The position numbers were made by a program, and so were the translations under genes. Positions 1 through 15,503 of a DNA stretch of 19,228 bases are shown here, piece by piece. This stretch comes from an uncultured bacterium (lineage in GTDB: Bacteria; Hydrogenedentota; Hydrogenedentia; Hydrogenedentales; JAEUWI01), in contig CAXBPH010000124.1 in assembly GCA_963977445.1 (NCBI GenBank), forward strand, positions 1 to 19,228, given 5' to 3'. How positions within the stretch are numbered: position 1 is the stretch's first letter; each line of letters begins with the position of its first letter. The notes beneath the pieces were generated by a model. The model saw only the letters and a list, made by a program, of their open reading frames with translations. It ran no database searches and was not told where the DNA came from.

Positions 1-405
1 GGCGTTGCTCGATAGCAGATAACGATTTTTTATCTAGTGAAGCCCAACTTCTTATTGGTTAATGATACGGCGACCACCGAGACCTTCACTTGGCTTCGAG
101 CCCGAAACTCTTCCAGCGTTCCGTCAGGATTTGAAACGATGTCAATTCGCAAACGCTCAAGGTCCGATGGAGAAAAAGCGGATTTCCTCCCAGGGTTCTG
201 TGGTTTCGGGAGAACCGAACCCGTGTCATGATACCGCTTTAATATATTCTTAACCGTCCCCTTGGGTGCCTTGAAACGCTTGGCAATATCACCCATTGAT
301 TGGCCGTCTTCAATTCGCGCGGCCACGACACGATTTCTAAGTTCGATTGCTGTAGGTTTCATGACCTAAGCACAACATCGTAGCTATATTAAATTAAAAG
401 TCTAT
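1..405 (-). mobile_element. IS630-family insertion sequence, partial (runs off the left window edge)
   Basis: Contains an IS630-like HTH ORF ending LGFTR at an A6 run, after which another frame reads KKSLSAIEQR. An AT-rich end at ~385-405 abuts a TA at 406-407, where similarity of the neighbouring gene fragment stops. IS630 elements target TA. Confidence 0.75.
30..362 (-). CDS. IS630-family transposase, N-terminal HTH ORF (OrfA-like; possibly inactivated)
   Basis: MKPTAIELRNRVVAA...IAKRF...TVKNILKRYHDTGSVLPKP...PDGTLEE...LGFTR is typical of IS630/Tc1 N-terminal domains. The stop TAA overlaps the A-run where KKK or a frameshift normally occurs. Confidence 0.8.
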   Translation of the reverse strand: MKPTAIELRNRVVAARIEDGQSMGDIAKRFKAPKGTVKNILKRYHDTGSVLPKPQNPGRKSAFSPSDLERLRIDIVSNPDGTLEEFRARSQVKVSVVAVSLTNKKLGFTR

Positions 406-406
406 T

Positions 407-700
407 AGCACGTCGCGCCATGGCTATCAGGGGCTTCATGGTGGCGCAACGGTGGATTATGCCGTTGAATTCGGGGGCCGCATTTGGCAATCCATGGGAG
501 AGTGGTACCACGTCTTCATCGGGTTTGCGCAGTAAATAGGGGATGTAGCCTGCGGAAATATCGAACGACACGGAGGGCACGTTCACTCCGTTCCCCCGCA
601 ATGACCCCAACAATGATGTCGAATATCGCTTCTTGCGGAGGATAATCCAGATCGCCGCCATCGCCGGCGTGCCGGGGCTCGTGAGCTTAGCGGGAACGGT
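407..700 (-). pseudogene. Internal fragment of an RtcR-like sigma54-interacting transcriptional activator
   Basis: Open frame from 700 reads ...KLTSPGTPAMAAIWIIL...SVSFDISAGYIPYLLRKPDE...GLPNAAPEFNGIIHRCATMKPLIAMARRA. This resembles the SPGTPAM motif and linker leading into the AAA+ domain (F-x-x-IIH...M...I..ARR.A). No N-terminus and no AAA+ Walker motifs are present. Confidence 0.6.
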
Positions 701-789: not shown

Positions 790-1017
790 CTAATCCTCCA
801 GCTTCCGAAGGTAGAAGTGGAGTAGTCCGAAGTTCAGTAGGAAGCACGCTGCGCTTGCCAGGGCCGCTGGGATTACCACGGCACTGTTTCCGCCGAGATA
901 GGCTTCCATCGTGGCCGTGAGTAGCCACAGCTGCAACACGGCAATCAGCGATACGATACACAAAATCGCCGTGACAATGGTCATGCGCTGGCTGCGCGCA
1001 AAGTGGGATTGCTTCAT
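790..1017 (-). CDS. Small 2-TM membrane protein (75 aa, DUF6755-like)
   Basis: ATG at 1017 overlaps the Rieske stop (ATGA), with GGAG upstream. [43 protein letters not shown]...PAALASAACFLLN has two hydrophobic helices. The longer 1209 start overlaps the Rieske gene. Confidence 0.8.
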   Translation of the reverse strand: MKQSHFARSQRMTIVTAILCIVSLIAVLQLWLLTATMEAYLGGNSAVVIPAALASAACFLLNFGLLHFYLRKLED

Positions 1018-1562
1018 GCCGTATTCTCCGCCATGCCCACGGCGATAATGCGATCGTCGCGCACTTCTAGGCGGACAGCGGGCAACGCGCGCCGGGGTGG
1101 CCCCGCGAGCGGTTCGCCCGTGTAGAGGTCGAAGGACCCATGGTGGCATGGGCAGTGAAACTTGCCCTCTTTTGGCTGGGGGATGACGGGGCAGGAGAGG
1201 TGGGTGCACTTCTGGCCGTAGGCCAGGTGTTCGCTCTCGGAAACGCGCACGAGCACGCAGGCGTCACCGGGGTCCGGATAGTGAAAGACCTTTGCGTCGC
1301 CTACGGCAAGTTCGCCCGCGCCGGCAATATCCATCTCGGGCAGGGGGCCACGCGCTTTCTTCCGCTCGCTCTCCACGACGATATAGCCCTGCCCTGCGAC
1401 GAAGGCGAGACTCGTGAGGCCCATGAGTTTGGTAAAGTCTCGCCGTGAGCGGTATTCATCGTCGGCCACGTCAATGGGAAACTGTTCCCGCCACGCGGGC
1501 TGCTTGGCGGTATCGTCTGGATTCGGCACGGAGGCACGTTTTTTTTGCTTGTCGTCGCTCAC
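1014..1562 (-). CDS. Rieske [2Fe-2S] protein with a twin-arginine-like motif and membrane anchor (182 aa)
   Basis: CTHLSC and CPCHHG boxes, GPP motif, and SRRDFTK followed by a hydrophobic stretch. GTG start at 1562 overlaps the upstream stop (GTGA), with GGAG upstream. Confidence 0.9.
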
Positions 1563-2209
1563 GGGAGCTTCTCCCCATCGTTCATGGCGCTGAACATCAT
1601 GTCGTCCTCCAGAGAATTGCCGAAGGGCGTCGTGTCCAGCGCGGCTGTCACGTCGAGATGGTTGGCCGGCGATTGCCGGGGTACCATCGTGTTTACTTTG
1701 GTCGTAATCGTTTGATTTCCGAACTGGAAGGTATTGACCGGTCGGGAGCTCGGGCGCAGTTCGTCGATTTCCGAACGCGAGCCGAAAAACAGGGCCTGAC
1801 TCGGACAGACCGAGGCGCACATCGGTTTTTTTCCGATCGACGTGCGATCGTAGCACATGTCACATTTCATCATGAGGTGCATACTGGTGTTCATCTTGGG
1901 CACGCCAAAGGGGCACGCAAGCACGCAGTTGTTGCAGGCAATGCATCGCGGTTTGCGCGCTGTCTGCACCACACCATCGGCCGTCCGCTTGATGGCGTCC
2001 GCCGGGCAGACTTCGGCGCAGGTAGGGGAGTCGCAGTGCATGCAGACCACGGGCACGGTCTGGGTCGAGGTGGCCCGGTCGATGTAGTCCAACTGGATCA
2101 TCGATTGGCCTTTGTGCGTGTCGCACTCGGAGCAGGCTTGTACACAGGCGTTACACCCGATACAGCGGCTTTGATCAATGAAGAATTCCTGGGTCTCTGA
2201 AACGGCCAT
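1559..2209 (-). CDS. 4x[4Fe-4S] electron-transfer subunit (DmsB/NrfC/FdnH-like)
   Basis: [41 protein letters not shown]...[13 protein letters not shown] overlap with the upstream gene. Confidence 0.93.
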
Positions 2210-4470
2210 TAGGACACCTCCTGTGTTGGGCGCTCGGCTGCGGCCGCAGTTTCGGCTTCATCCGGGTTTGCCTTGCGCAGGCGCGCAGCACAGACCTTGT
2301 ATTCCGGTATCTTGGAAATCGGGTCCTGGGCGGAAATTGTGAGCTGGTTGGCGCTTTTGCGCCCCGGCCAATGGTAGGGGATGAAAATAGTATCCGGCCG
2401 GATGGTTTTTACCACCCGCGCCCGAAGTGTACAGGTTCCACGCCGCGATTCCGCAGTGACCCACTGTCCATCATCTATACCCAGCTTCGCTGCCATCCGC
2501 GGATGAACCTCAATGAAGGGTTCTGGGCAATGGTCGAGCAGGGGGCCTATTCGTCGCGTTTGTGCTCCAGAAAGAAAATGACTTACTACGCGGCCGGTGG
2601 TCAGCATCAGCGGATACTCCACGTCCGTATCTTCGGTGGGTGGCGAGTACATGGATACGTTGAACCGCGCCTTCCCATCGGGAAAGTAGAAGGGGCCCTC
2701 GCCCTTAGCTACGGGATTCCAGGACCCGGGCTCAAAGAGCCGGGGGGTGCCGGGATGGTCGTCTGCGGGGCAGGGCCAGAAGATGCCGTCGTTCGCTTCA
2801 ATTTTTTCGTAGGTGATGCCGGAATAGTCGGCCACACCACCCTTGGAGGCCGCGCGGAGTTCGTCCATGATATCGCAGGCCGAGGCAAAGGTGAACCCAT
2901 GGGTACGATTCAGTGCGCGGGCGATGTCCTGGATGATTTGCCAGTCTGGTTTGGCGTCGCCGGGGCATTCTACGGCGGGGTTGATCTTAATCACCCGGCC
3001 CTCGGTAGAGGTGACCGTGCCTTCATCTTCCTCTTGCAGCGAACCCGGCAAGACGATGTCGGCGAAGGCCGCGCTCTCGCTCATGAAGAAGTCGATGGCA
3101 ACATAAAAGTCCAGTTTCTCGAGTGCGCGCTGGACGAATGCATTGTCCGGCAGCGACACCATGGGGTTGAAGCAGATCGAAAGGAGGCCACGAATCTCGC
3201 CCGCATCGATCTTACGTATCATCTCGTAGGCGTCCACACCGGGTTGTGGCAGGGACTCGGGCGTTACCCCCCAAACGCCGGCCACATGGGCGCGGTGCTC
3301 CGGATTCCCCAGATCACGCCCCCCGGGGAGCATGTCCGCCTTCTGTCCGTGTTCCCGCCCACCTTGGCCATTCGCCTGGCCCGTGATGGTGCTATAGCCA
3401 CAGCCCTCCCGGCCGATGCGGCCGGACGCGAGCACGATATTGATGGCTCCGAGGCAATTTTGTACGCCGTGCGAGTGGTGTTCGATACCGCGGGCGTGAA
3501 GGAGGAAGCTGGTCTTCGCCGTGCCCCACCACTCCGCGGCCTGACGGATGGACTTCTCTGCAATACCCGTCACTTCTGCTGTCCGCGCAGGTGTCCACTC
3601 ATGCACATGGGCCGCCAGATCATCGAAACCCACCGTGTGTGTGTCGATGAAGGGGTGATCCAGCCAATCGTTTTCGATCATCAAGTGCAATACGCCGTTG
3701 AACAGTGCGACGTCACGGCCCGGCTTGATGGGCAGGTAGAGATCGCTCATGCGGCCTGCCGGGGTAATTCGCGGGTCCACGGTGATGATTTTTGCGCCAT
3801 TTTCGCGGGCCTGCCAGAGGTAGTCGGTCGTGATAGGGGCGCATTCGGCCACGTTTGCACCGCTGACCCAGATAACGCCGGCCTTGATAATGTCGCTCCA
3901 GGGATTGGCGGCCCGGTCGATACCGAAGGACTTCTTGTTTGCTGCGGCCGCGCTCACCATACAAAGCCGACCGTTATAGTCGATGTAGGGTGTCTTCAGG
4001 CATACCCGGGCAAATTTACCCATGAGGTACGTCTTTTCCGTCGTGAGGCTGGCACCACTGAGGACGCCGAAGCCCCCGGGGCCGTGTTCCTGCTGTATGC
4101 GTTCGATCTCTGCGGCTACCCGCGCGATGGCGGCGTCATAGCCCATGGCCTTGTATCCACCGGGGGCGTTGGTGTCGCGCTCATAGGCGTGGAGCAAGCG
4201 GTCGGGATGGGCGCCCTGCAGGTAGCGTTTGACCCCTTTGGGGCAGAGTTTGCCCTGGTTGAAGGGAAAATCGTAGCGCGGTTCGAACCCGATAACCTGA
4301 TTGTTCTTGACCAGCAGTTTCACGCCGCATTGCTGTCCACAAAAACAGCAATGGGTGTCGACCACCTTGTCGGGGGTGACGCCGGGGTCGAGCTGCATGC
4401 CCGTGGATACGGAATCATGGGGCCCGAAATGTTCTCGAAGGGCCGAATCGGTTGCGGAATGGGTAGCCAT
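2209..4470 (-). CDS. Mo-bisPGD oxidoreductase catalytic subunit, NasA/NarB/NapA-like (probable nitrate reductase)
   Basis: HCCFCGQQC...LCPKG [4Fe-4S] motif; NGRLCMVSA (Cys Mo ligand followed by Met, as in Nas/Nap); [30 protein letters not shown]-terminus. No Tat/Sec signal. Confidence 0.9.
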
Positions 4471-4481
4471 TGAACGTACTC

Positions 4482-5627
4482 CTAAGGATGAAAGTTAGCC
4501 GCGTCTTCGCTGCCCAGTGGTCCCTCCCCGAAGCCGGGGTTTGCATAGACTGGCATGGGAAGCGGGAGCGTCGCGGAAATCCCGGAAGCACTCAACTGAA
4601 GCTGGCTCTGGGCCAGGGCGAACATCGTGCGGCGGCAGGGCGGGCAAACCTGCTGGTAGTGTGCCAACGCTGGATTGCCCTCCACCTCGTATCGGTAGCC
4701 CAACTCGTGCTCGGCCTGAATGAGGTCGTTGATGTGCATCTCCGACGCGAAGGGATGGTCGCACCGTGCACAACGTGCGGGGGCTTCCCGCTTCGCAACA
4801 TCCTTGTAGAATTCGACACCCAATTGGGCGGGACGCTGGAAGATGTGAAAGAACTTGCCGAAGGGAAGCCACATCAGCGTGAAGATAACGGTTACCGCGT
4901 GGGCCAGTGCGAGAAAATCATAGCCGTAGCCTTCCAGCCACGTGTAGCTCACCGTGAGCAGCAGGCCACTCACACTGACGGCGAACAGCAGGATCAGAGG
5001 GAGAAAGTCTTCGGAGAAGGTCTGCAGCGCCGCCGCACCTTCGTCCCGCATTCGGCGTCGCATGGCCAGCATCACCCCCGGAATAACCATCAATGACGCC
5101 CAGACCAATCCATGAAACACCAGAAAGGCGAACCAGGAATCGTGGGGCATGGCAATTGTTGGAAATCCGAATACCATGATGCGGTACCAGTCGAGCCGGT
5201 CTGGCAGCGATTCGAACGAGATCCAGCCAAATACGAGGGGAAAGGTAATCGCCACTGCGAGGACACATCCCCACATGATCAGCATGTGCGCCAGCCATCG
5301 GAGTATGCCACGCTTCAGCATGAAATCATTGAGGGCGAACTGCCCACCCACCCGGGTGAGCCATAGCCGCATATTACCTGAGCGGTGATTGCGCTTGAAA
5401 AAGGTCTGCCAGCCACGCCGCCAGAACAGAGCCGTGGGGGGCCGCTGCAGCCAGACGGCGTAGCGGTAGGTAATTCCGAATGTCGCGAAAAGTGTCGCGA
5501 AGGTATACGCCACAAGGGGGGCATCGAAATGTTGGAGGTTCCGGGAACCCACCACAATCAGCAGCCCCAGAATTGTGGTTACGATGAGGGCACGAAGCCC
5601 TGCTTGAAAAACACCTGCTCGCATCAT
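4482..5627 (-). CDS. NarI/DsrM-like cytochrome b-type integral membrane protein with a C-terminal CxxC...CxxC domain
   Basis: About 6 hydrophobic helices with His at positions typical of heme b ligands ([31 protein letters not shown], also FHGLVW). The soluble tail carries CARC and CPPC. AAGGGG lies before ATGATG. Confidence 0.75.
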
Positions 5628-5681
5628 ATCCCCTTACTGGTACTTAACACGTAATGAAGCACTCTAACAGATAGTGAAAGG

Positions 5682-5733
5682 ACAACAAAAGGGGAGGCGA
5701 AGTGTGACGCGTTTGGAGGGACGCATCGCCCCC
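5682..5733 (-). terminator. Putative intrinsic terminator or attenuator between mobB and the oxidoreductase operon
   Basis: The minus strand reads GGGGGCGA-TGCGT-loop-ACGCG-(bulge)-TCGCCTCC followed by CCTTTTGTTGT. Confidence 0.4.
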
Positions 5734-5862
5734 GTAAGCCCTTCTCTGACAACAGGGCGTGATTTCCAGAGGGCACCAGCTGCAGTGATCGCAATGCCTC
5801 ACGTTGGTGGACTGGGTGGTCGCTACGAGAGAAAAAAGCACGGCCTCGAATACAAAAGCGGA

Positions 5863-6903
5863 TCAATTTCCGGTACCCACAGCGAGCATTTCAGACGAAC
5901 AGGCCGATGTGCTGCGGCTGAGCCCGTCTTTTCGCAAATCTTTTGGGATAATTGGACAATGAATATTGACGTTCATTGAAAGAGCCTCTGGTTCCCTCGC
6001 CGTTTCCAAAATTCCACGGGCCCGCCAGTCGTACAATGCGAAAGAGGGTTCAGCATGATCCGCGATGCTTGGTTTCGGTAGGATTGCCCACGTACCCGGC
6101 CCACGCTGATCAAGCAGCCATTGAATCGCGTGAGACGAAAGGAAGGACGGGTCGCCCGTGACAAAAAGCCACTGACACCATGGATCCCAGCGGAGGGCTG
6201 CCAGCATTCTGGCGAAGGGTCCTTGGTTGTCGGGCACGGCCGGCAGGAAATTCAGATTTGACCGAACTGCGGGCGTCGCGACACTACCAAGGAGCGTTAC
6301 GGAGTCGACATGGGCCGTCAGGGCCCTTCCTATCGTCTCGCTCCAGAAACGTTCCCGACGATCAGGCGAAAGGTCGTCCGCTTCGCTTCCGACGAGAATT
6401 CCGCCCCGGACGGGAGTACGTCTGGATTGCGCGCGTAGCCAACTGCGCAAAAATTTATGGGTGTGCTTTACGCGGTCATCATCACGGCCCAACACCATCG
6501 CGAAAGGCCCGTCAGATTCAGGTGGACTTGACTCACCCTCACTACAAAGCCAGATCTTCGCAGGAAGGGCCGTGGACTTGTGCCCTTCGACAAGTACAAC
6601 GTCATGCTGGCGTAATAGCAGTTCGATAGCGCTTGGCAAAGAAGGTATCATTTCTATGGGAAGACGAAGGAATCCTTGACTCGGGCAATGGGCCAAGACA
6701 GTCGCTCCTGCATTGAAGAGTCGATCGGTGTCTTTTCCTGGTCGGTCCAACTGAAGGCCGTGGGCATCGTGCTTTATGACAGCGACGGCAAGACCGTCGG
6801 CGCGAAGCAAAGGGAGTAGCTTCTCGAGCAGGGTGGTCTTGCCTGCACCGCTGTAACCACAGATCCCGAGAACCGGCATGCGGTCGAGGATTGATTCAAT
6901 CAT
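5863..6903 (-). CDS. mobB: Molybdopterin-guanine dinucleotide biosynthesis protein MobB fused to a degenerate MobA-like domain
   Basis: GICGYSGAGKTTL Walker A, VAVIKH, DRPGKDT and VLVEGHK are MobB motifs. The C-terminal half has MobA-like remnants (GILVG, GPFARMLAAL, WLFVTGDPSFL, EPSFALY). Confidence 0.85.
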   Translation of the reverse strand: MIESILDRMPVLGICGYSGAGKTTLLEKLLPLLRADGLAVAVIKHDAHGLQLDRPGKDTDRLFNAGATVLAHCPSQGFLRLPIEMIPSLPSAIELLLRQHDVVLVEGHKSTALPAKIWLCSEGESSPPESDGPFAMVLGRDDDRVKHTHKFLRSWLRAQSRRTPVRGGILVGSEADDLSPDRRERFWSETIGRALTAHVDSVTLLGSVATPAVRSNLNFLPAVPDNQGPFARMLAALRWDPWCQWLFVTGDPSFLSSHAIQWLLDQRGPGTWAILPKPSIADHAEPSFALYDWRARGILETAREPEALSMNVNIHCPIIPKDLRKDGLSRSTSACSSEMLAVGTGN

Positions 6904-7188
6904 AGCACTCTATTCTCTTTCCGTTGAATGGCTCGGAGTATCTTGCTCCGCCGAAGTTGCTGCCCCCGCAGTGGGGGAGGACGGCAGATGCACAATGATT
7001 GAGTCGAGCGCCGAGGCAAACGGCCCCATATATCGGGTCTAAATTAGAATTTTCCAACGTGTCCAACATCCAGTCCTGCAGATTGAGTTCGTAAGAAATT
7101 GGCCTTACGACACCGAGCACTCGCCCGCCTGTCCCTGGGGGACATTGTCACGGGGAGTCTCAATGGTAGGATTGCGTATGCCTTGGCA

Positions 7189-7461
7189 CTACGTGGCATC
7201 GCCTTGGCCAAAGACTATCGTAACCAGCAGCACGCAGTCGGTCTTCGCTTCGATGGAATGCACGGTTCCTCCTTCGATGTGAAGCCAAGTGAGCGGTCCA
7301 TCCACCTTGTGGGGCGGCACCGTGTTTCCCGCGCGCGTGAATAGCCGGACCGCTTCAAAGCGATCCGTCTTCACCAGTGCGACGGTGTGCGTGTCTGTGT
7401 TCTGGGGTCCGAATGTCTCCAGGTCTATGACTTCGCCGGGGACAGCGTGTTCGATGGCCAT
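7189..7461 (-). CDS. Small cupin-domain protein, apparently with an internal in-frame deletion
   Basis: MAIEHAVPGEVIDL...LVKTDRFEAVRL...AGNTVPPHKVDGPLT | WLHIEGGTVHSIEA...LLVTI. AGGAG RBS. The segment between cupin motifs 1 and 2 looks absent. Confidence 0.75.
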   Translation of the reverse strand: MAIEHAVPGEVIDLETFGPQNTDTHTVALVKTDRFEAVRLFTRAGNTVPPHKVDGPLTWLHIEGGTVHSIEAKTDCVLLVTIVFGQGDAT

Positions 7462-7531
7462 CTATTTTCTCCTACGTGTTGCGTGTTGGTGTGCATTTGC
7501 TCCTGCAGAGGGGCTACCGCAACGATGACGG

Positions 7532-8248
7532 TTATCGTCGACTTTCTTCGGTAGCCAGGGCCCTGGGAAACAAGATGTTGTTCTCTTTGTGGATATGCTG
7601 ATGCAGGTCCATCTCAAGTTCGTGAAGACCGTCGAGAAGGGCCCGATAGGTGTTACAGGCCCAATCTGGCGGGGTGTAACCATCCGTAAGACGGCTCATG
7701 TCCTCGAGTCCATTGCCCGAGGTGTCGTGTTCCGCCTCCATGGCCCGAATCGGGTTGGCAAGTGTGCCGAAGGGCATATCCGGCAAGGTATCCGATTGGG
7801 CCAACTGACTTATGACGGGAAAGAGAATCCGTTCCTCTTTCATCATATGGGCCGAGAGTTCTTCCGCGAGCGCGTGGACAACCGCTGCAAGTTCTGCCAA
7901 TCGCGCATCTTTGTCGCCGTGAACCTTGGCCACTTTTGCGGACATCTGTTGCATCCGGGGAAGCTCCCGAACGAGATAGGCGTGGTGCGTTGTCACAATG
8001 TGCTTTGCCAGTTCGTCAAGCGGCATGGACGTATAATCGGTGGCATCTTCCGCAGAACCCGACGTATCCATCTCGTTGATAGACGCCAGGACCTTATCGA
8101 CATTGTGGCCTTTTTTGGCGCACGCTTCCACGAGTGGCTTCTTACCGCCACAGCAATAATCTATACCGAGTTCCTCGAAGACCCGGGCGCGACTCGGTCG
8201 TTCTCGCACCAGTTCACCAACGGTTTGTTGTGCAGTTAATGTACTCAT
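7532..8248 (-). CDS. ric: Iron-sulfur cluster repair di-iron protein (Ric/YtfE/ScdA)
   Basis: GIDYCCGG N-terminal motif; hemerythrin-like HHAYL, HMMKEERILFP, EHD and HIHKENNILFP. Confidence 0.96.
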   Translation of the reverse strand: MSTLTAQQTVGELVRERPSRARVFEELGIDYCCGGKKPLVEACAKKGHNVDKVLASINEMDTSGSAEDATDYTSMPLDELAKHIVTTHHAYLVRELPRMQQMSAKVAKVHGDKDARLAELAAVVHALAEELSAHMMKEERILFPVISQLAQSDTLPDMPFGTLANPIRAMEAEHDTSGNGLEDMSRLTDGYTPPDWACNTYRALLDGLHELEMDLHQHIHKENNILFPRALATEESRR

Positions 8249-8250
8249 GA

Positions 8251-10557
8251 TTAGGACTCCTTATTCAGTTCGTCGCCTTCCGGCGCATCTAATTCCATGT
8301 TTGCATCCAGGTGACCCGCCACGGACCAGCCCGTCTTGAGACCCAGAACAAACCATCCCAATGCCAACACGCCTATGGCGAATATGGTATCGCCAATGAC
8401 GCGTAGCCATCTCAGTGTATCCATCAAATCGGTTTGCGTGAATTCCGCAGAACGGGCCATCCACATGCCATCATTGACGCTTGCCCAAGCCTGCAGAATG
8501 CCGCGGGGAAGGTCACTGAGGCCGACCATAAGGGCCAGGCCAATGTTGATCGACCAGAAGGCAAAGCACAACACGGGCGTCTTCCAGACCTGGTGCGCCG
8601 CCATACTCTTCAGGCAGAACAGCATCAGCCCGATAGCCAGCATGCCGTATACGCCGAATAGTGCGGTGTGTCCGTGCACAGCCGTGGTGTTCAGCCCCTG
8701 CATATAATAAAGGGCAATGGGTGGGTTGATGAGGAAGCCGAAGAGTCCGGCGCCCACCAGGTTCCAAAAGGCTACGGCAACGAAACAATAGACCGGCCAT
8801 TTATAGCCGGAGACCCAGCCCTGTAGACGGCTTACGGACAGGTTGCCGTAGGCCTCGAATCCAATAAGGACCAAGGGCACCACTTCCAAGGCGCTGAATA
8901 CGGCGCCCAAGGCCAACACGGCCGTGGGGGTACCAGAGAAGTAGAGGTGATGGAACGTGCCGATAATACCGCCGGAGAGAAAAATACTGGTTGCGAGAAG
9001 CACTGCCGCGGTCGCGGTGCGCACCTTAACCAACTGAAGGCGGGTAAAGAGGAACGCGATTACTACCGTGGTAAAGACTTCGAAGAATCCTTCAACCCAC
9101 AGGTGGACCAACCACCAGCGCCAGTACTCTGCGATGGCCAGGTTGGTCTGCCGTCCCCACATGAGGCCCGCACCGTAGAAAAGCGCGATGGCAATGCACG
9201 AGATAGAGAACAGGGCCAGGAGGTGCCGATTGGGCCCGGGCTTGCGCATCGCCGGCCACAAACCGCGCCCCATAAGAAAGAGCCAGATGAACAGACCAAT
9301 GAAGAGAAAGATCTGCCAGAATCGGCCCAGGTCCACATATTCGTAGCCCTGATGGCCGAACCAGAAGTTCATCTCCAGTCCCATTTGTTGACGGGTGCCA
9401 TACCAGGTGCCAAAGAGCGTGCCCACAACAATCACGAGAAGGGCACCAAAGAGCACATTTACGCCCAGGCGCTGGTACTTCGGTTCCCGTCCTACCACGG
9501 CAGGTGCCAGATAGAGACCTGTGGCGAGAAAGGCTGTTGCTATCCAGAATATCGCCAACTGGGTATGCCACGTGCGTGTTACCGCATAGGGGAGGATTTC
9601 GGCGAGTGGAATGCCATAGAATCCCGAACCCTCTACGCCGTAGTGCGCGGTTATCGCTCCCATGCTTACCTGGGTCACGATGAGGCCCATGACTACCCAA
9701 AAGTATTTTACAGTCGCCTTCATGGAGGGGGTGGGATCGAAGGCCAGCATTGGATCCCGATCGGGGATGGGGGGCGCGTCTTCCTCCCGTGATTTTTCCA
9801 AAACATAGTACCAGGAGAGTGCCCCAATACCCGCCAACAGCACAATAACGCTGAGTACGGACCAAACCAGTATTGCTGCGGTGGGCTGGTTGTCGATAAG
9901 GGGTTCTGGGGGCCAATTATTGGTATAGGTGATATCTGTGTCTGGGCGATTCGTGCTGCACACCCAGGCCGCCCAGAAGTAAAACGATGCCAAATCGTCA
10001 CGCCGTTCCGCGTCGGGTAGTACATTTTTTGGAATGGCATAGGCCTCACGGAGATGGTCTAGCGAGGCATCGCCGCTGTAGAGGAGCTTGTAGTGTTCGG
10101 ACACCGCAGCGATGGCCTCGGCCCGAAGGTCGGAAACCACCAGGTCACCCGTATCCGGGTTATACGTATTGGTACGAAGTTCCCCCTTCAGACGGGCCTT
10201 TAAGGCCGCCTGCTGCTCGGGATGCAGGTCCGTGTAGGCCTCAACGCCATAGTCTGCCTTGGTCCAATGGGCCAGGAGCCATTCCGACTCTCGATGCAGA
10301 AAATCTGCCGACCAATCCGGTGCCACGTAGGAGCCATGACCCCAAACCGTGCCCACCTGCTGGCCACCGGTAGACTGCCAGACGTTCTGTCCGTCTTTGA
10401 TATTCTGTCCGGTGAAGAGCACGTCACCCGACGTCGTGACCACCCGATCAGGAATCGGGGGCGCTTGTCGATAAATCTCGAAGCCATAATAACCAAGCAC
10501 CGAAAAAGATGCGGACATCACGACAAATAAGCCTATCCATAACTTGCGATATTCCAT
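8251..10557 (-). CDS. norB: Quinol-dependent nitric oxide reductase (qNOR, long NorB/NorZ)
   Basis: GTVWGHGSYVAPDWSAD, YTNNWP, RTWHTQL, EYVDLGRFWQ, WWLVHLWVEGFFEVF, GTFHHLY, SALEVVPL and VHGHTALFG; 768 aa multi-TM protein. Confidence 0.97.
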   Translation of the reverse strand: MEYRKLWIGLFVVMSASFSVLGYYGFEIYRQAPPIPDRVVTTSGDVLFTGQNIKDGQNVWQSTGGQQVGTVWGHGSYVAPDWSADFLHRESEWLLAHWTKADYGVEAYTDLHPEQQAALKARLKGELRTNTYNPDTGDLVVSDLRAEAIAAVSEHYKLLYSGDASLDHLREAYAIPKNVLPDAERRDDLASFYFWAAWVCSTNRPDTDITYTNNWPPEPLIDNQPTAAILVWSVLSVIVLLAGIGALSWYYVLEKSREEDAPPIPDRDPMLAFDPTPSMKATVKYFWVVMGLIVTQVSMGAITAHYGVEGSGFYGIPLAEILPYAVTRTWHTQLAIFWIATAFLATGLYLAPAVVGREPKYQRLGVNVLFGALLVIVVGTLFGTWYGTRQQMGLEMNFWFGHQGYEYVDLGRFWQIFLFIGLFIWLFLMGRGLWPAMRKPGPNRHLLALFSISCIAIALFYGAGLMWGRQTNLAIAEYWRWWLVHLWVEGFFEVFTTVVIAFLFTRLQLVKVRTATAAVLLATSIFLSGGIIGTFHHLYFSGTPTAVLALGAVFSALEVVPLVLIGFEAYGNLSVSRLQGWVSGYKWPVYCFVAVAFWNLVGAGLFGFLINPPIALYYMQGLNTTAVHGHTALFGVYGMLAIGLMLFCLKSMAAHQVWKTPVLCFAFWSINIGLALMVGLSDLPRGILQAWASVNDGMWMARSAEFTQTDLMDTLRWLRVIGDTIFAIGVLALGWFVLGLKTGWSVAGHLDANMELDAPEGDELNKES

Positions 10558-10653
10558 CTGTTCTACTCACTTTCTAGCTGCATTTACACCGGCTGCGATA
10601 CATTCGTAAAATAATCTGTGGTCGTACCACCAAAACGCTCGACACAGGCTACA

Positions 10654-10667
10654 TTGAGCACGTTCAA
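10654..10667. promoter_or_regulatory. Possible FNR/DNR-type binding site upstream of norB
   Basis: TTGAG-CACG-TTCAA versus the consensus TTGAT-N4-ATCAA (8/10 match), ~100 bp upstream of the norB start. Confidence 0.35.
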
Positions 10668-10835
10668 ACGGAATTCAGAACCCACCTCCAAGAAGCTCCC
10701 CACGAAACAAAACAACGTGCATCATGTTGCGAGCTCATTTCATCGATTTAAGCGGAACGCCACTCCTATTCAGAAGCCATCTACATGAATGACATGTGTT
10801 TATATGATTATGGGCCAAAAAAATAGTACGACGGA

Positions 10836-11228
10836 CTACAAGGCACTGGACGGAACACGATGCGCAACGATATCTGCCAATGTCGATTCCTTAAGGAGCC
10901 TGAGGTAGTCATCTCGAATGGTAACCCACTTGAAATGCATTGCACAGGGGGTAGTTGCTGAACACGATGAATTTCCCATGAAACAACCTTCCACGACATC
11001 AAAAAGACTTATCTTTTCAGGGGGGCGCGCTAACTGAAACCCACCACCTTTTCCTTTTTGGGAGCTTACAATGCCCGACTGAATCAGTCCTTGCAGAAGC
11101 TTACCCAAATAATTCTGGGGTGCGTCTATCCGAGTAGCGATACTCGAGGCACCCTGAAACTCTCCGGGTCGCTCTGCGAGCGCCGCAACGGCTTTCAACG
11201 CATGTAGGGCTGTCTTGGAAATCATCAC
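10836..11228 (-). CDS. Rrf2-family transcriptional regulator with C-x6-C-x5-C-x2-H putative Fe-S ligands (start GTG 11228 or ATG 11225)
   Basis: IATRIDAPQNYLGKLLQGLIQSGIVSSQKGKGGGFQLARPPEKISLFDVVE winged HTH; CFMGNSSCSATTPCAMH; ESTLADI. Confidence 0.92.
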   Translation of the reverse strand: MMISKTALHALKAVAALAERPGEFQGASSIATRIDAPQNYLGKLLQGLIQSGIVSSQKGKGGGFQLARPPEKISLFDVVEGCFMGNSSCSATTPCAMHFKWVTIRDDYLRLLKESTLADIVAHRVPSSAL

Positions 11229-11249: not shown

Positions 11250-11278
11250 ATTATAGGTTATAGGATTCGTGTTGTCAA
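11250..11278 (-). promoter_or_regulatory. Perfect-consensus sigma70 promoter for rrf2
   Basis: The minus strand reads TTGACA (11278-11273), a 17-nt spacer, then TATAAT (11255-11250), followed by an AAGGA RBS and the rrf2 start. Confidence 0.85.
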
Positions 11279-12051: not shown

Positions 12052-12999
12052 ATGTTCAAGGACGATGACAAACAGAACGAAGGGGAGAACGTGGACAGGG
12101 AAGGGACCGCGCCGCCGCGGCAAGGATTGCGGCGCGTTATGCTGTTCTCCTTCTTCGTCGTCCCTTTCTGTATTGCCGCCCTAGGAGTGGCTTTGTTCAC
12201 CGGGGTCTGTATGCTCACTATGGATGCGCCGAGCATTTCCAGTTTACTTGACGACGTCCGGCATGGATACAGCAACAAACGGTGGCAGGCGGCGTATCAG
12301 TTGGTTGCCTTGTTGGACACAAGCCCGCCAGTCAGACTGAGCGAGGATGACGTCGCTCGCTTCAAAGACACCTTCGCGGAGGCCGACCCCAATACGGATC
12401 AGGAGATTCGTCAGTACCTCGCACTGGCCATGGGCTGCACACGAAACAGTGCCTTTGCGCCCTTGCTATTGAACGCGCTGGCCACGGAACCGGAAGTATC
12501 AAAACCGTTCATCGTGCGGTCCCTGGGACGCTTGGGTGATCCCGCTGCAGCACCCATGCTTGCGACGTACCTGGGCGACGAAACACCCTCGGTCCGCCTC
12601 GAAAGTGTAATCGCCCTCGGTGCCCTGGGGGTCCCAGAGAGTGTAGGGGCGCTGCAGTTGGCCTTAGAAGATTCAGAACCAAATATACAGTGGGATGCCG
12701 CAATCGCCCTGGCGAAACTGGGAGACGGCGCGGGCCAGCCCACGCTGTTGGCCCTGCTGGATAGAGCCTATCTTGCCACGTTTCCAGAGATAGACCCCTC
12801 GGAAACCAATCGCATCCTGGGGGTAGCCATCCAAGCCGGTGCGCTCCTCAACGATCCAGCGCTGGAGCGGGCCATCGCGCAGCTGGCTTCGAGCGATAGC
12901 AATATGACGGTACGGCAGATAGCGTCGGAGACGATTAAGTATCGGAAAGTGGTGGCGAATCAAAATTTGCCGATTAGCCTAGAGGGACAGGGGATATGA
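12052..12999 (+). CDS. Membrane-anchored HEAT-repeat (PBS lyase-like) protein
   Basis: N-terminal TM helix (LFSFFVVPFCIAALGVALF) followed by repeats IRQYLALAMG, VRLESVIALGALG and IQWDAAIALAKLGD. ATGA overlap with the Rieske gene. Confidence 0.85.
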   Translation: MFKDDDKQNEGENVDREGTAPPRQGLRRVMLFSFFVVPFCIAALGVALFTGVCMLTMDAPSISSLLDDVRHGYSNKRWQAAYQLVALLDTSPPVRLSEDDVARFKDTFAEADPNTDQEIRQYLALAMGCTRNSAFAPLLLNALATEPEVSKPFIVRSLGRLGDPAAAPMLATYLGDETPSVRLESVIALGALGVPESVGALQLALEDSEPNIQWDAAIALAKLGDGAGQPTLLALLDRAYLATFPEIDPSETNRILGVAIQAGALLNDPALERAIAQLASSDSNMTVRQIASETIKYRKVVANQNLPISLEGQGI

Positions 13000-13538
13000 C
13001 CGCTGATGATAAGAATGCAGGGACCCGGGAAGAGACGGGGCAGCCCACCGCTGGTGGTCGTCGAAGTTTTCTGGTGTCCGCCATTATGATTGGCTGGCTC
13101 TCCTTCGCGGGGACCGTGGTCGCCATGTCGGCGGCCCTCCTTCGATTTGCCTTTCCCAATGTACTCTTTGAGAAGCCCCAACAGTTCGCTGCTGGAATCC
13201 CGGAAGATTACGTAGACGGTCAGGTTTCGTTGCGCTGGAAAGACGCCCATGGCGTTTGGATTGTGCGCGACGGCAACCAGCTCTATGCCCTGCTTGCTTC
13301 GTGTACCCATCTCGGTTGCACACCGAACTGGCAGGAGGGAGACCGGAAATTCAAATGTCCGTGCCACGGAAGTGGATTTCATCTGAGTGGCATCAATTTC
13401 GAAGGTCCGGCCCCGCGCCCACTGGAACGCTGCGGCATTACATTGAGCGCGAATGGTCAATTGGTGGTGGATAAGAACAAACGATTTCTCTACGAAAAGG
13501 GCGGTTGGTCCGATCCCGTTTCCTATGTGCAGTTATAG
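12996..13538 (+). CDS. qcrA: Rieske iron-sulfur subunit of a Rieske/cytochrome b complex (QcrA/PetC-like)
   Basis: GRRSFL Tat motif plus TM anchor; CTHLGCTP, CPCHGSGF and EGPAPRPL. Confidence 0.92.
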   Translation: MTADDKNAGTREETGQPTAGGRRSFLVSAIMIGWLSFAGTVVAMSAALLRFAFPNVLFEKPQQFAAGIPEDYVDGQVSLRWKDAHGVWIVRDGNQLYALLASCTHLGCTPNWQEGDRKFKCPCHGSGFHLSGINFEGPAPRPLERCGITLSANGQLVVDKNKRFLYEKGGWSDPVSYVQL

Positions 13539-13553
13539 TCCCAACCTGGAGAG

Positions 13554-14348
13554 GTGTTGATGGCCAAACGAGATAGAAACTGGTTGACCTGGCTGCGGGA
13601 GAGTCAGGTGTACACCTCGATATTCCGCGTTGGGATACCCAAGGATCGACGGGAACGGATGCTCGCCATCCTGACCAATGTATTTCTCCATCTCCACCCG
13701 GTATCCATCCCGAAGCACGCCGCTAAATTGACCTACACCTGGTGTATGGGGGGGCTCTCCTTCTTTCTCTTTCTCACCCTGATCGTCACCGGCATCCTGC
13801 TCATGTTCTACTACCGGCCCACCATTGAGTATGCCTACGGGGACATTATCGACCTCAAAGAGCAGACGCCCATGGGCATCATGCGGGAACTCCATCGCTG
13901 GGGTGCCCATGCCATGATTATTGCTGTCTGGCTCCATATGTTCCGGGTGTTCATGACCGGCTCCTACAAACGCCCCCGGGAATTCAATTGGGTCGTGGGC
14001 GTTGTTCTACTCGTCCTGACCATGTTTATGAGTTTCACCGGCTATCTGCTCCCCTGGGACCAACTGGCCATGTGGGCCGTAACGGTTGGCACCAACATGG
14101 GCGCGGCAACGCCACTCCTGGGTGTCGACGGGCCGGGCGCGGCCCTCCTGAGCATCGGGGATGTAAACCTTGTGCACAGCGGCGCGGACGCGCGCTTCGC
14201 CTTACTGGGCGGAAGATTCGTTGGGGATGCGGCCCTCCTGCGTTTCTATGTGCTCCACTGTGTCGCGGTGCCCTTTATCCTGGTAATCGGCATGATGATC
14301 CACTTCTGGCGCGTACGAAAGGACGGGGGCATTTCCGGTCCACTATAG
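13554..14348 (+). CDS. qcrB: Cytochrome b6-like N-terminal subunit (QcrB/PetB-like); likely start ATG 13560
   Basis: [25 protein letters not shown]...[27 protein letters not shown]...IHF; ends GISGPL like PetB. Confidence 0.95.
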
Positions 14349-14354
14349 GGTGGG

Positions 14355-15494
14355 ATGGCAGACCCCGAAATTGACATGGTAGAACTCTTGAAATCGGCGA
14401 CAAATCTGATTGCGAATCCGCCCGTACTATTTACCCTTATTCTTGTTGCCTTCTTTTTCCTGTTTCCCATAAACAATTGGTTTCAGTCCTGGAACCGACG
14501 GATGGGATTGGAGGCTTTGTGGACCCCCCGCGGGGCCTGTCTGGGTGCCTTTGCGATGACCTTATTTCTCGGGATCGGTGTAATGGACGCCAATTTCCGG
14601 GCGGTGGTCATGAAACCCGACAACGTACCCATCGTCGGCCTCGTTTATCTGGTTCCCTTCTTCCTCTGGTTGGCCATGAAGCAGGCCACCGAAAATGACC
14701 GCCGTCTACGCGCGGGCCAGCCACCTGCCGAGCACGACCCGGATGACAATCGGGTCCTCGTCTGGCCCGATCTGGTATACATCGAGCTAATCGCCCTTGT
14801 CCTGATGACGGTTTTTCTCATCGTGTGGTCCCTCGCAATCGCGGCCCCCCTGGAGGGCCCCGCCAACCCGACTGTCTCGCCAAACCCATCCAAGGCACCG
14901 TGGTACTTTCTGGCCCTTCAGGAGATGCTCGTTTATTTCGACCCCTGGATCGCCGGCGTCGTCCTGCCCGCACTGATGGTTTTTGCACTCATGGCGATAC
15001 CCTACATCGACAACAATCCCAAGGGTCAGGGCTACTACAGCTTCAGCGAGCGTAAGATGGCCATCGCCCTCTTTCTATTCTGCTGGCTTGTGCTCTGGGT
15101 TCTGCTTATCGTCGTGGGGACCTTTCTTCGGGGGCCCAACTGGAATTTCTTTGGCCCCTTCGAATACTGGGATGTTCACAAGACCGTTGCACTGGACAAC
15201 ATCAACCTTTCGGAGTACGTCTATGTTCTCTGGATGGGCACGGGCTTACCCGACAGCGTACTGCTCCGCGAGATCTGGGGCATCCTATTGCTCCTGGGAT
15301 ATTTCCTCGTAATGCCGCTGCTTCTCGCCCGTACGCTGCTAAAGCAACACCTTCAATCGCTGGGGGCCCTTCGTTACAGCGTCTTTGTCATGGTGACGTT
15401 GATCATGTTTTTTTTGCCCATAAAGATGTACCTGAGGTGGCTTTTCACTCTGAAATACATCATCGCGATACCCGAGATTTCCTTCAACATCTGA
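14355..15494 (+). CDS. Cytochrome b6 subunit IV-like protein (PetD/QcrC-like) with extra N- and C-terminal TM helices
   Basis: VWPDLVY, APLEGPANP...PNPSKAPWYFLALQEML (Qo-loop equivalent of PEWY), IPYID and GTFLRGPNWNF. Confidence 0.88.
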   Translation: MADPEIDMVELLKSATNLIANPPVLFTLILVAFFFLFPINNWFQSWNRRMGLEALWTPRGACLGAFAMTLFLGIGVMDANFRAVVMKPDNVPIVGLVYLVPFFLWLAMKQATENDRRLRAGQPPAEHDPDDNRVLVWPDLVYIELIALVLMTVFLIVWSLAIAAPLEGPANPTVSPNPSKAPWYFLALQEMLVYFDPWIAGVVLPALMVFALMAIPYIDNNPKGQGYYSFSERKMAIALFLFCWLVLWVLLIVVGTFLRGPNWNFFGPFEYWDVHKTVALDNINLSEYVYVLWMGTGLPDSVLLREIWGILLLLGYFLVMPLLLARTLLKQHLQSLGALRYSVFVMVTLIMFFLPIKMYLRWLFTLKYIIAIPEISFNI

Positions 15495-15503
15495 TGGTGC
15501 CCT

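Follow-up and report, generated by a model that had tools for sequence, protein, structure and literature searches.

Bacterial nitrate reductases are classically divided into Nar, Nap, and Nas enzymes. The stretch of DNA analyzed here (hereafter the window) is the entire 19,228-nucleotide (nt) contig C124 of an uncultured bacterium whose genome comprises 7.1 Mb in 464 contigs, and at positions 790 to 5627 it harbors five coupled open reading frames (ORFs), all on the minus strand. The question raised by this locus is what kind of molybdenum (Mo) enzyme the operon encodes. Judged by its sequence, the enzyme is of a known kind but combines its subunits in a new way; this design is mis-annotated and widespread among soil and water bacteria, and we consider it probable that the five products form one membrane complex reducing nitrate to nitrite on the cytoplasmic side.

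Layout, conservation, and spread of the operon

Read from 5' to 3', the operon starts with a membrane anchor, followed by the catalytic Mo subunit, an iron-sulfur (Fe-S) protein, a Rieske protein, and a small membrane protein of the DUF6755 family.

5628 to 5862, minus strand: presumed promoter/regulatory region, 235 nt 5' of the operon
4482 to 5627, minus strand: putative NarI-like membrane anchor, 381 amino acids (aa)
4471 to 4481, minus strand: 11-nt spacer at the junction of the anchor and Mo genes
2209 to 4470, minus strand: predicted NasC-like catalytic subunit with a Mo-bis(pyranopterin guanine dinucleotide) (Mo-bisPGD) cofactor, 753 aa
1559 to 2209, minus strand: four-cluster ferredoxin, 216 aa, TAATG overlap with the Mo gene
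1014 to 1562, minus strand: Rieske protein, 182 aa, GTG start, GTGA overlap with the ferredoxin gene
790 to 1017, minus strand: DUF6755 small membrane protein, 75 aa, ATGA overlap with the Rieske gene

An earlier annotation made from the letters alone (the sequence-only reading) had named the same five subunits but listed them in an order that is not that of the genes; the tight coupling that it described, with the 11-nt gap and the TAATG, GTGA, and ATGA overlaps, was correct at every junction. A consensus scan of positions 5628 to 5862 revealed no sigma-70-like site.

A scan for the cassette in one genome per species identified at least 560 carriers, and the counts below were derived from the best 80 loci. 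In these loci, which represent more than 10 phyla, gene order and strand were identical as far as each contig reaches, and all five genes were found in 63. Following the anchor, we detected the Mo gene in 78 of 80 loci, the ferredoxin and Rieske genes in 64 each, and the DUF6755 gene in 63. A ferredoxin match is missing from 16 loci, 14 of which stop inside or just past the Mo gene; the contig of L071 stops 531 nt past the anchor, and L016 contains more DNA, yet no ferredoxin match. In L056, the DUF6755 match alone was missing, and DUF6755 was thus present in 63 of the 64 loci reaching that far. Such an arrangement is far beyond chance. Because the genes overlap or nearly abut and their order is unchanged in 80 loci, we regard them as one conserved unit, and the neighborhood survey that had been suggested for all five genes indeed found the partners conserved together.

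The carriers belong to the Acidobacteriota, Chloroflexota, Verrucomicrobiota, Gemmatimonadota, Armatimonadota, Planctomycetota, Myxococcota, Binatia, Deinococcota, and Bacillota. Cultured carriers, including non-pathogenic ones, are represented by four Deinococcus plasmids, with D. wulumuqiensis and D. psychrotolerans among the hosts, and one Brevibacillus laterosporus replicon, which makes the question directly testable. In the Deinococcus wulumuqiensis record, the genes are annotated as "MFS transporter" (MFS, major facilitator superfamily), molybdopterin oxidoreductase, 4Fe-4S dicluster protein, Rieske protein, DUF6755 family protein, and nitrate/nitrite transporter. Matches to the anchor formed more than 7000 clusters at 90% identity and 320 clusters at 50% identity (E <= 1e-30).

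In the tree of the Mo subunit (see below), the inner branches of the cassette clade are short and do not track phyla. As the branches ignore phyla and the distribution agrees, the cassette appears to have spread laterally. DUF6755 was found in only 5 of 135 genomes of the source phylum; among its closer kin, 0 of 8 further species of the genus and 0 of 14 further genomes of the family had it. The G+C content of the operon is 59.7%, compared to 56.4% for the genome, and 3.8% of genome windows of the same size are as high. Composition is therefore a weak signal of transfer, and the argument for acquisition rests on distribution, which suggests that the operon was probably acquired laterally in the source genome.

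The five predicted subunits

The Mo subunit contains the PF04879 (Fe4S4), PF00384 (molybdopterin), and PF01568 (dinucleotide-binding) domains, with an N-terminal [4Fe-4S] motif and a Cys ligand within GRLCM. Its best model was NasC (789.8 bits, under the curated cutoff of 1100), and the orthologs of 48 of 50 genomes scored between 747 and 819 bits against this model. The scores against the other models were 549 bits for formate dehydrogenase alpha, 245 to 256 bits for NapA (cutoffs of 904 to 930), 125.7 bits for arsenite_ox_L (cutoff of 359), and 64.8 bits for narG (TIGR01580, cutoff of 1084). GRLCM was present in all 66 Mo orthologs and GQxNxxGGRE in 64 of them. None of the 66 carried a motif like that of the twin-arginine translocation (Tat) pathway, and no signal peptide was found.

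The phylogeny was inferred by quick maximum likelihood (LG+G4; 42 rows; rooted on Escherichia coli FdhF), with support given as the Shimodaira-Hasegawa-like approximate likelihood ratio test (SH-aLRT) only; neither AioA nor cyanobacterial NarB was among the rows. All 25 cassette sequences fell into one clade (SH-aLRT, 100), which also takes in G003_C9. Its sister group consists of NasC-type genes adjoining NirB (G007, G041, and Deinococcus aquaticus); the neighboring branch holds proteobacterial NasA, the other Nas of the source genome, and E. coli NapA, and the formate dehydrogenases are placed outside (SH-aLRT, 100). One row, G023_Nas_fusedlong, has a branch length of 5.16, is probably in the wrong reading frame, and is to be disregarded. 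In a Terriglobia metagenome-assembled genome (MAG), a second, partial NasC-like gene (G003:C9:345590-347110, L112) pairs with a Deinococcus cassette sequence inside the clade. The sequence-only reading had taken RLCM and GQxNxxGGRE as marks of the NasA/NapA clade and had called for such a tree; the motifs were confirmed, and the cassette, as a single clade, was placed with NasC. On these sequence criteria, the Mo subunit belongs to the Nas/Nap radiation and is distinct from the NarG type.

The anchor had no Pfam match, neither to PF02665 nor to the PF00033/PF00032 family of bc-type cytochromes b, and NCBIfam gave weak matches (E of about 1e-5) to the NarI-like parts of QmoC and TcuB. Six transmembrane helices are predicted (N-in, C-in), followed by a predicted cytoplasmic Cys4 domain (CxxC...CxxC) and a conserved tail, GPLGxEDxxNFHP. 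Residues His113, His171, His242, and His260 and Cys285, Cys288, Cys327, and Cys330 are invariant, and more than 7115 homologs are 65 to 87% identical across phyla. The VIA search with the anchor model (predicted local distance difference test [pLDDT] score of 74) matched EtfD (Z 11.6) and NarI (1q16_C; 184 aligned, root-mean-square deviation [rmsd] of 4.9) at a Z of 10.9, a value under VIA's own safe level for helical bundles; the next row was at 7.7. When aligned by hhalign with the NarI of the source genome, H242 and H260 (WLPFGKFFH) paired with the helix-V heme ligands (IPFTRLVH), at a probability of only 12% (E 0.0024). H113 and H171 plausibly complete a two-heme arrangement, and we regard the anchor as a putative di-heme cytochrome b resembling NarI.

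At NCBI, stand-alone anchors (P0013, P0015, P0035, P0036, P0085, and L097:8854-9966) are labeled "MFS transporter" although they have no MFS domain, and this label has probably spread from the NarK-fused forms. At JGI, family members have been named anything from "nitrate reductase gamma subunit" to "ribosomal protein S27AE." Fusions of the anchor with the Mo subunit were considered as evidence for a cytoplasmic Mo subunit and rejected: P0260 and P0221 look out of frame (Arg/Pro/Ala-rich runs), and P0261, which lacks the anchor tail, was likewise set aside.

The ferredoxin is a Fer4_11/DmsB-like protein (DmsB model, 100 bits; narH model, 36.8 bits against a cutoff of 524) with 16 invariant cysteines that fit four cluster motifs. 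It falls into the DmsB/FdnH/NarH class, with a conserved C-terminal extension, and its closest solved relative is FdnH (1kqf_B, E 7.7e-27). It thus shares the class of NarH without being a NarH ortholog. A Tat-like motif was found in 0 of 64 ferredoxins, and no signal peptide was detected.

In the Rieske protein (PF00355), a twin-arginine motif (SRRDFTK) precedes one transmembrane helix and the Rieske domain, which is of the respiratory type and has both disulfide cysteines (CTHLSC and CPCH). RR[DE][FL] ahead of the helix, CxHxxC, and CxCH are each found in 63 of 64 orthologs. With its twin-arginine signal-anchor and both boxes, the protein has the features of respiratory (bc/b6f/Aio-type) Rieske proteins, and export is predicted. 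The N-terminal tail, the 25 residues preceding the RR motif (QPxWRxDFPIDWPxDxY), is also conserved; such conservation is atypical of signal peptides and hints at docking in the cytoplasm. The top matches of the Rieske profile in the PDB were the Thermus bc Rieske protein and AioB, both with an E of about 1e-15, and QcrA. The best fold match of the model (pLDDT of 84.7) was AioB (1g8j_B, E 3.4e-8), which superimposed with an rmsd of 1.4 A over 116 columns at 30% identity; against arsenite_ox_S, the protein scored 42.7 bits (cutoff of 95.65). Finally, the smallest subunit matched PF20540 (91.9 bits, cutoff of 27; E 2.9e-26) and is predicted to form a two-helix hairpin, both ends of which are probably cytoplasmic.

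The proposed complex, its hosts, and its neighbors

We propose that the Mo subunit and the ferredoxin would dock on the cytoplasmic face of a NarI-fold di-heme cytochrome b, at the Cys4 domain and conserved tail of the anchor and possibly at the N-terminal tail of the Rieske protein. The latter would be inserted via its twin-arginine signal-anchor, with the [2Fe-2S] domain outside, above the distal heme, and DUF6755 would contribute two helices to the membrane bundle. The most likely electron donor would be (mena)quinol, oxidized on the outer side of the membrane at a site to which both the Rieske domain and the cytochrome b would contribute; alternatively, a periplasmic carrier would be oxidized near the Rieske cluster and the distal heme. 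The electrons would then pass through the two hemes, the four [4Fe-4S] clusters of the ferredoxin, and the cluster within the Mo subunit to nitrate at the Mo-bisPGD. This would amount to a NarGHI-like redox loop around a Nas-type catalytic subunit, in which charge separation conserves energy. The sequence-only reading had proposed a membrane-bound, quinol-coupled oxyanion reductase, probably for nitrate, and at the level of computation this reading is supported, with quinol as the presumed donor and nitrate as the presumed substrate.

The topology is deduced from the anchor. In three proteins of the 50%-identity library (P0122, P0169, and P0204), a complete NarK domain is fused ahead of the anchor, and because of this fusion, the anchor N terminus is expected in the cytoplasm. 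Since the N terminus would be inside and loops 60-106 and 186-202 are strongly basic, the C-terminal domain would be cytoplasmic as well. This topology, together with the lack of a Tat motif on the Mo subunit and the ferredoxin, argues for an active site in the cytoplasm and a Rieske domain outside.

Alternatively, the whole module could be periplasmic, the folded Mo subunit and ferredoxin being co-exported on the Rieske Tat signal, as AioA is with AioB, and anchored by the cytochrome b. Indeed, the twin-arginine motif is confined to the Rieske protein, the fold of this protein is nearest to AioB, and AioA is close to NasC/NasA in the available part of Wells et al. (PMC7331816). However, nitrate/nitrite-type transporters, found beside the cassette or fused to the anchor, would be needless for a periplasmic enzyme, the large conserved C-terminal domain of the anchor is predicted to be cytoplasmic, and the highly conserved Rieske tail suits cytoplasmic docking better than it suits a signal n-region. 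We therefore consider a periplasmic module very improbable.

For an active site in the cytoplasm, a further route is conceivable, although we would not expect it: the Rieske protein could be the entry point for electrons from a high-potential periplasmic chain, which would run from cytochrome c (a bc-type complex is encoded 6 kb away) to the Rieske protein, the hemes, and nitrate. In a variant of this route, the Rieske protein and the NarI-fold cytochrome b would form a Qo-like bifurcating site. If Rieske entry were true, nitrate respiration would proceed via complex III plus an electrogenic step, with about three times the charge of NarGHI per nitrate; with either Rieske entry or the bifurcating variant, the prokaryotic nitrate reductases would gain a fourth class, one with distinct bioenergetics.

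The genes next to the cassette bear on its substrate. Among the 54 loci with enough downstream DNA to be evaluated, a SLAC1/TehA gene was located directly downstream in 22 and an MFS gene in 10, while 8 had either of them within 6 kb and 14 had neither. Thus, 40 of 54 loci have an anion transporter adjacent to the cassette or in its vicinity. One of the 14, L002, has a CLC channel instead, so that three families of anion carriers occur near the cassette (NarK/MFS, SLAC1/TehA, and CLC). L002 is also the closest relative of the operon (82 to 87% identical proteins), and its downstream region (L002:13131-15528) encodes a MarR regulator and a CLC chloride-channel-family protein with CBS domains. 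In Deinococcus, a NarK/NarU-type MFS gene is found directly past DUF6755. The sequence-only reading had noted that the operon includes neither a nitrate transporter nor an assimilatory nitrite reductase gene; this holds for the operon of the window, but the absence of a transporter is not a trait of the family. In relatives, the NarK, SLAC1/TehA, or CLC-type carrier would import nitrate and export nitrite. Because of the anion carriers and NarK fusions and the near-invariant Nas/Nap motifs, nitrate and nitrite are the likely substrate and product.

The complex could nevertheless act on another substrate (chlorate, selenate, or another oxyanion) or work in reverse, oxidizing a cytoplasmic substrate and passing electrons out via the Rieske protein to periplasmic acceptors. 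In this superfamily, sequence alone cannot tell the substrate, the NasC score is under the cutoff, and the source genome already has two nitrate reductases. Furthermore, in Aio, Rieske proteins normally move electrons away from Mo, and AioB-like proteins would fit the reverse direction. We consider another substrate or direction quite unlikely, given that the Cys-Met pair and GQxNxxGGRE are (near-)invariant and common to Nas and Nap, that the transporters found linked or fused belong to the NarK family of nitrate/nitrite carriers, and that 38 of 50 carriers have no other recognizable respiratory nitrate reductase, 12 of these 38 possessing NrfA.

Two other nitrate reductase systems are encoded elsewhere in the source genome.

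L092:5952-14591 (contig C3): assimilatory cluster with a NirB-NirD fusion (1003 aa), NarK (448 aa), and a 1201-aa protein joining a Nas Mo domain to a NirB-like FAD/NAD(P)H reductase
L093:452-1768 (contig C272), minus strand: NarI (438 aa), last gene of a NarGHJI operon, with SRRYFLQG, a hydrophobic helix, and a Rieske domain (CTHLGC...CPCH) following its cytoplasmic C terminus

Judged by its sequence motifs, this NarI is linked by an internal twin-arginine signal-anchor to its Rieske domain, which would face outward. Upstream of the NarGHJI operon lies a gene for an Rrf2 regulator. Since both the canonical Nas-NirBD-NarK cluster and NarGHJI are present elsewhere in the genome, the five-gene operon is its third system of the nitrate reductase type.

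We also surveyed 50 carrier genomes, which are MAGs of unknown completeness. NarG was over the cutoff in 10, with fragments in 2 more, and 38 had no NarG; NapA was found in 0 of 50. NirB was over the cutoff in 2 (plus 1 partial), and NirA-like proteins (>=380 bits, none over the cutoff) were found in 8 (plus 2 partial), so that about 10 to 13 of the 50 carriers have a sirohaem nitrite reductase (NirB or NirA-like). NirK was over the cutoff in 4 genomes and present in 8 at E <= 1e-40, and NrfA was present in 19, of which 12 have neither NarG nor NapA. NirS was found in 0 of 50, in a search that had no positive control. Two carriers, G007 and G041, have a separate NasC-NirB pair besides the cassette. 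Across the 80 loci, the cassette has no recurrent nitrite reductase neighbor; the pentaheme nitrite reductase NrfA (PF02335, E of about 1e-133 to 1e-135) abuts it in two MAGs that are unrelated to each other, lying upstream of the anchor in one and downstream of DUF6755 in the other.

L115:3278-4477 (G007:C39): NrfA beside the cassette
L116:2292-3518 (G037:C108): NrfA beside the cassette

Since NarG and NapA are both missing from 38 of 50 carriers, the cassette is often the sole recognizable candidate for a non-assimilatory nitrate reductase and may be the main enzyme. The picture that emerges from these gene inventories is that of a general nitrate-to-nitrite module serving varied fates of nitrite, which would be handed to whichever pathway the host has, often periplasmic NrfA.

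The same survey bears on whether the cassette is an assimilatory NasC variant fed by a ferredoxin-like subunit and a Rieske protein (compare NasG/NirD for Paracoccus NasC), with nitrite serving only for ammonium synthesis. The Mo clade is sister to NasC beside NirB, NasC is the best model, and a NirB or NirA-like protein is present in the 10 to 13 carriers mentioned above. In addition, nasC linked to Fe-S and Rieske genes in Bacillus bataviensis was called an alternative assimilatory system by Heylen and Keltjens (2012; PMC3475470), the available part of which mentions no membrane subunit. However, the source genome already has a complete cluster of NirBD, NarK, and the Nas-reductase fusion, G007 and G041 have their separate NasC beside NirB, about 37 of 50 carriers have no match to a sirohaem nitrite reductase, and no such gene recurs beside the cassette. 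Soluble systems have no known need of a di-heme anchor, an outward Rieske domain, or a four-cluster wire, and the neighbors are Rrf2, quinol nitric oxide (NO) reductase (qNOR), and RIC genes in the window and Crp/Fnr-type regulators in 10 other loci. We thus find a purely assimilatory role unlikely; the survey fits a membrane-coupled dissimilatory role better, and assimilation in some hosts is possible.

Several observations weigh against the membrane-coupled nitrate reductase that we favor. The NarI likeness of the anchor is moderate, in view of the Z score and hhalign probability given above, and Foldseek with the anchor model returned no match at E <= 0.001 (probability of 0.96, E of 0.23 to 0.42). 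The C-terminal flank of the Rieske helix is more basic than the N-terminal flank, so that the positive-inside rule favors a cytoplasmic Rieske domain, and AioB, its closest fold, directly binds its own Mo subunit and takes it along through the membrane. Assimilatory NasC forms the sister clade, and the B. bataviensis genes were interpreted in the same sense. No transporter gene lies beside the operon in the window, and 17 of the 50 carriers, all MAGs, show none of the counted nitrite reductases.

If the enzyme is membrane-coupled, surveys based on narG and napA would miss a large share of the nitrate-reducing potential of soils and waters. Conversely, nasA surveys would over-count assimilation, as the catalytic gene is now counted as "assimilatory nasA."

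The other genes on the operon's strand in the window are the following.

5863 to 6903, minus strand: MobB fused to a C-terminal MobA-like nucleotidyltransferase domain, for bis(molybdopterin guanine dinucleotide) (bis-MGD) cofactor synthesis (PF03205, E 5.7e-26; weak PF12804 for the MobA-like domain; TIGR00176, 91.4 bits)
7532 to 8248, minus strand: RIC/YtfE di-iron Fe-S repair protein (TIGR03652, 261.6 bits)
8251 to 10557, minus strand: qNOR (Pfam)
10836 to 11228, minus strand: Rrf2 regulator (Rrf2 superfamily, 92 bits)

The mobB fusion is located directly upstream of the operon, and both qNOR and mobB are upstream on the same strand, as had been pointed out from the sequence. MobB was beside the cassette in none of the 80 related loci, and this neighbor is therefore specific to the window. 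The Rrf2, qNOR, and RIC genes (7532 to 11228) form an NO-stress context on the strand of the operon. The Rrf2 protein could not be assigned to NsrR, with only 36.7 bits against a cutoff of 182. A search for shared operators in the four minus-strand intergenic regions (16-mers with up to 3 mismatches on both strands, with 20 shuffles as a control) gave 0 matches, compared to 0 to 11 in the shuffles, and since no operator word is shared, co-regulation of the operon by Rrf2 is unsupported. A perfect sigma-70 consensus (TTGACA-17-TATAAT) is found at 11278 to 11250 on the minus strand, 5' of the Rrf2 gene. The 628 nt between RIC and mobB (6904 to 7531) hold a perfect inverted repeat, TCGTAAG-N8-CTTACGA, the only one found, and two ORFs (74 and 90 aa) without a Pfam match.

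On the other side of the operon, just 3' of it, lie a 110-aa fragment of an IS630/Tc1-type transposase helix-turn-helix (30 to 362, minus strand) and a 90-aa ORF (389 to 661, minus strand), and the contig ends there; in most relatives, the place of positions 30 to 661 is taken by an anion transporter gene. A divergent bc-type operon (12052 to 18282, plus strand) encodes a HEAT-repeat protein, a b6f-like Rieske protein, the N-terminal part of a cytochrome b, a protein like the C-terminal part of cytochrome b, and two cytochromes c, the first of which is multiheme. Within it, positions 12996 to 15494 mark the true bc-type genes with PF00033. The 657-aa ORF at 16309 to 18282 overlaps a 422-aa ORF (15504 to 16772), and its true start is therefore probably later.

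Comparison with known systems

In the literature searched, which did not extend to subscription journals and supplements, we found no description of the five-gene complex, biochemical or otherwise, and no mention of the name DUF6755. Similarly, the available parts of PMC10100899, PMC3578206, PMC3362086, and PMC1978522 do not mention the cassette. The design has apparently never been studied. According to the available part of PMC7816997, Mycobacterium smegmatis narB, which may or may not belong to the cassette family, is dispensable and not expressed. As the sequence-only reading had held, the operon matches none of NarGHI, NapAB, and NasAB, since it has the hallmarks neither of NarG, NarH, NarJ, or Nap nor of a Nas electron donor.

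With NarGHI (E. coli, PDB 1Q16), the proposed complex would share a cytoplasm-facing Mo subunit, a four-cluster Fe-S protein, and a putative NarI-fold anchor whose His pair aligns with that of helix V, as well as the frequent pairing with NarK-type transporters. However, its catalytic subunit is of the Nas type, with a Cys ligand and 753 aa (NarG has about 1200 aa and an Asp ligand), its ferredoxin of 216 aa is under half the size of NarH, and its anchor has two extra N-terminal helices and the Cys4 domain. The Rieske and DUF6755 proteins have no NarGHI counterpart. No narJ match was found among the five products or in the MobB fusion; the NarJ of the genome is in the separate NarGHJI operon.

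The NasC/NasA systems (Bacillus NasBC, Klebsiella NasCA, and Paracoccus NasC-NasG-NasB) share with the cassette the motifs, the lack of a signal peptide, and the position as sister clade, and in Paracoccus, NasC likewise works with a Rieske-type protein, NasG (PMC3475470, available part). Unlike these systems, the operon has no NAD(P)H/flavin partner or nitrite reductase, and neither kind of gene recurs in the 80 loci; its partners are predicted to be membrane bound, and its Rieske protein is respiratory, Tat-anchored, and disulfide-bearing rather than NirD-type. The operon differs from Nap in that the Mo subunit has no Tat motif and there is no cytochrome c gene.

In AioAB, too, a Mo-bisPGD subunit from this broad radiation has a small Rieske partner with a Tat signal, AioB being the best fold match, but AioA has no Cys ligand and is periplasmic, and Aio has neither a four-cluster subunit nor a cytochrome b anchor. 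A Rieske protein (NarB) and a cytochrome b (NarC) are likewise encoded in the haloarchaeal operon for a periplasm-facing Nar, but there a NarG-type catalytic subunit bearing a Tat signal is combined with a bc-type cytochrome b, whereas the Mo subunit of the window is Nas-type without a signal and its cytochrome b is NarI-like without PF00033. The NarI::Rieske protein of the source genome resembles the proposed complex in that an RR motif and a helix connect a NarI-type cytochrome b with a Rieske domain predicted to face outward. Both this protein and the bcc-aa3 supercomplex-dependent Nar1 of Streptomyces work with canonical NarG and NarH, whereas the Rieske protein of the window is encoded by a separate gene.

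According to the available part of Wells et al. (2020; PMC7331816), the clade of Nas, Aio, Nap, and formate dehydrogenase never occurs with four-cluster or membrane-anchor subunits, and Nas is confined to assimilation. The union of a Nas-type Mo subunit with a four-cluster ferredoxin and a NarI-like anchor, which had already been recognized from the sequence, was supported by the NasC score of 789.8 bits, the 16 cysteines, and the VIA match to NarI, and the cassette thus breaks the stated rule on the partner subunits of the Nas clade.

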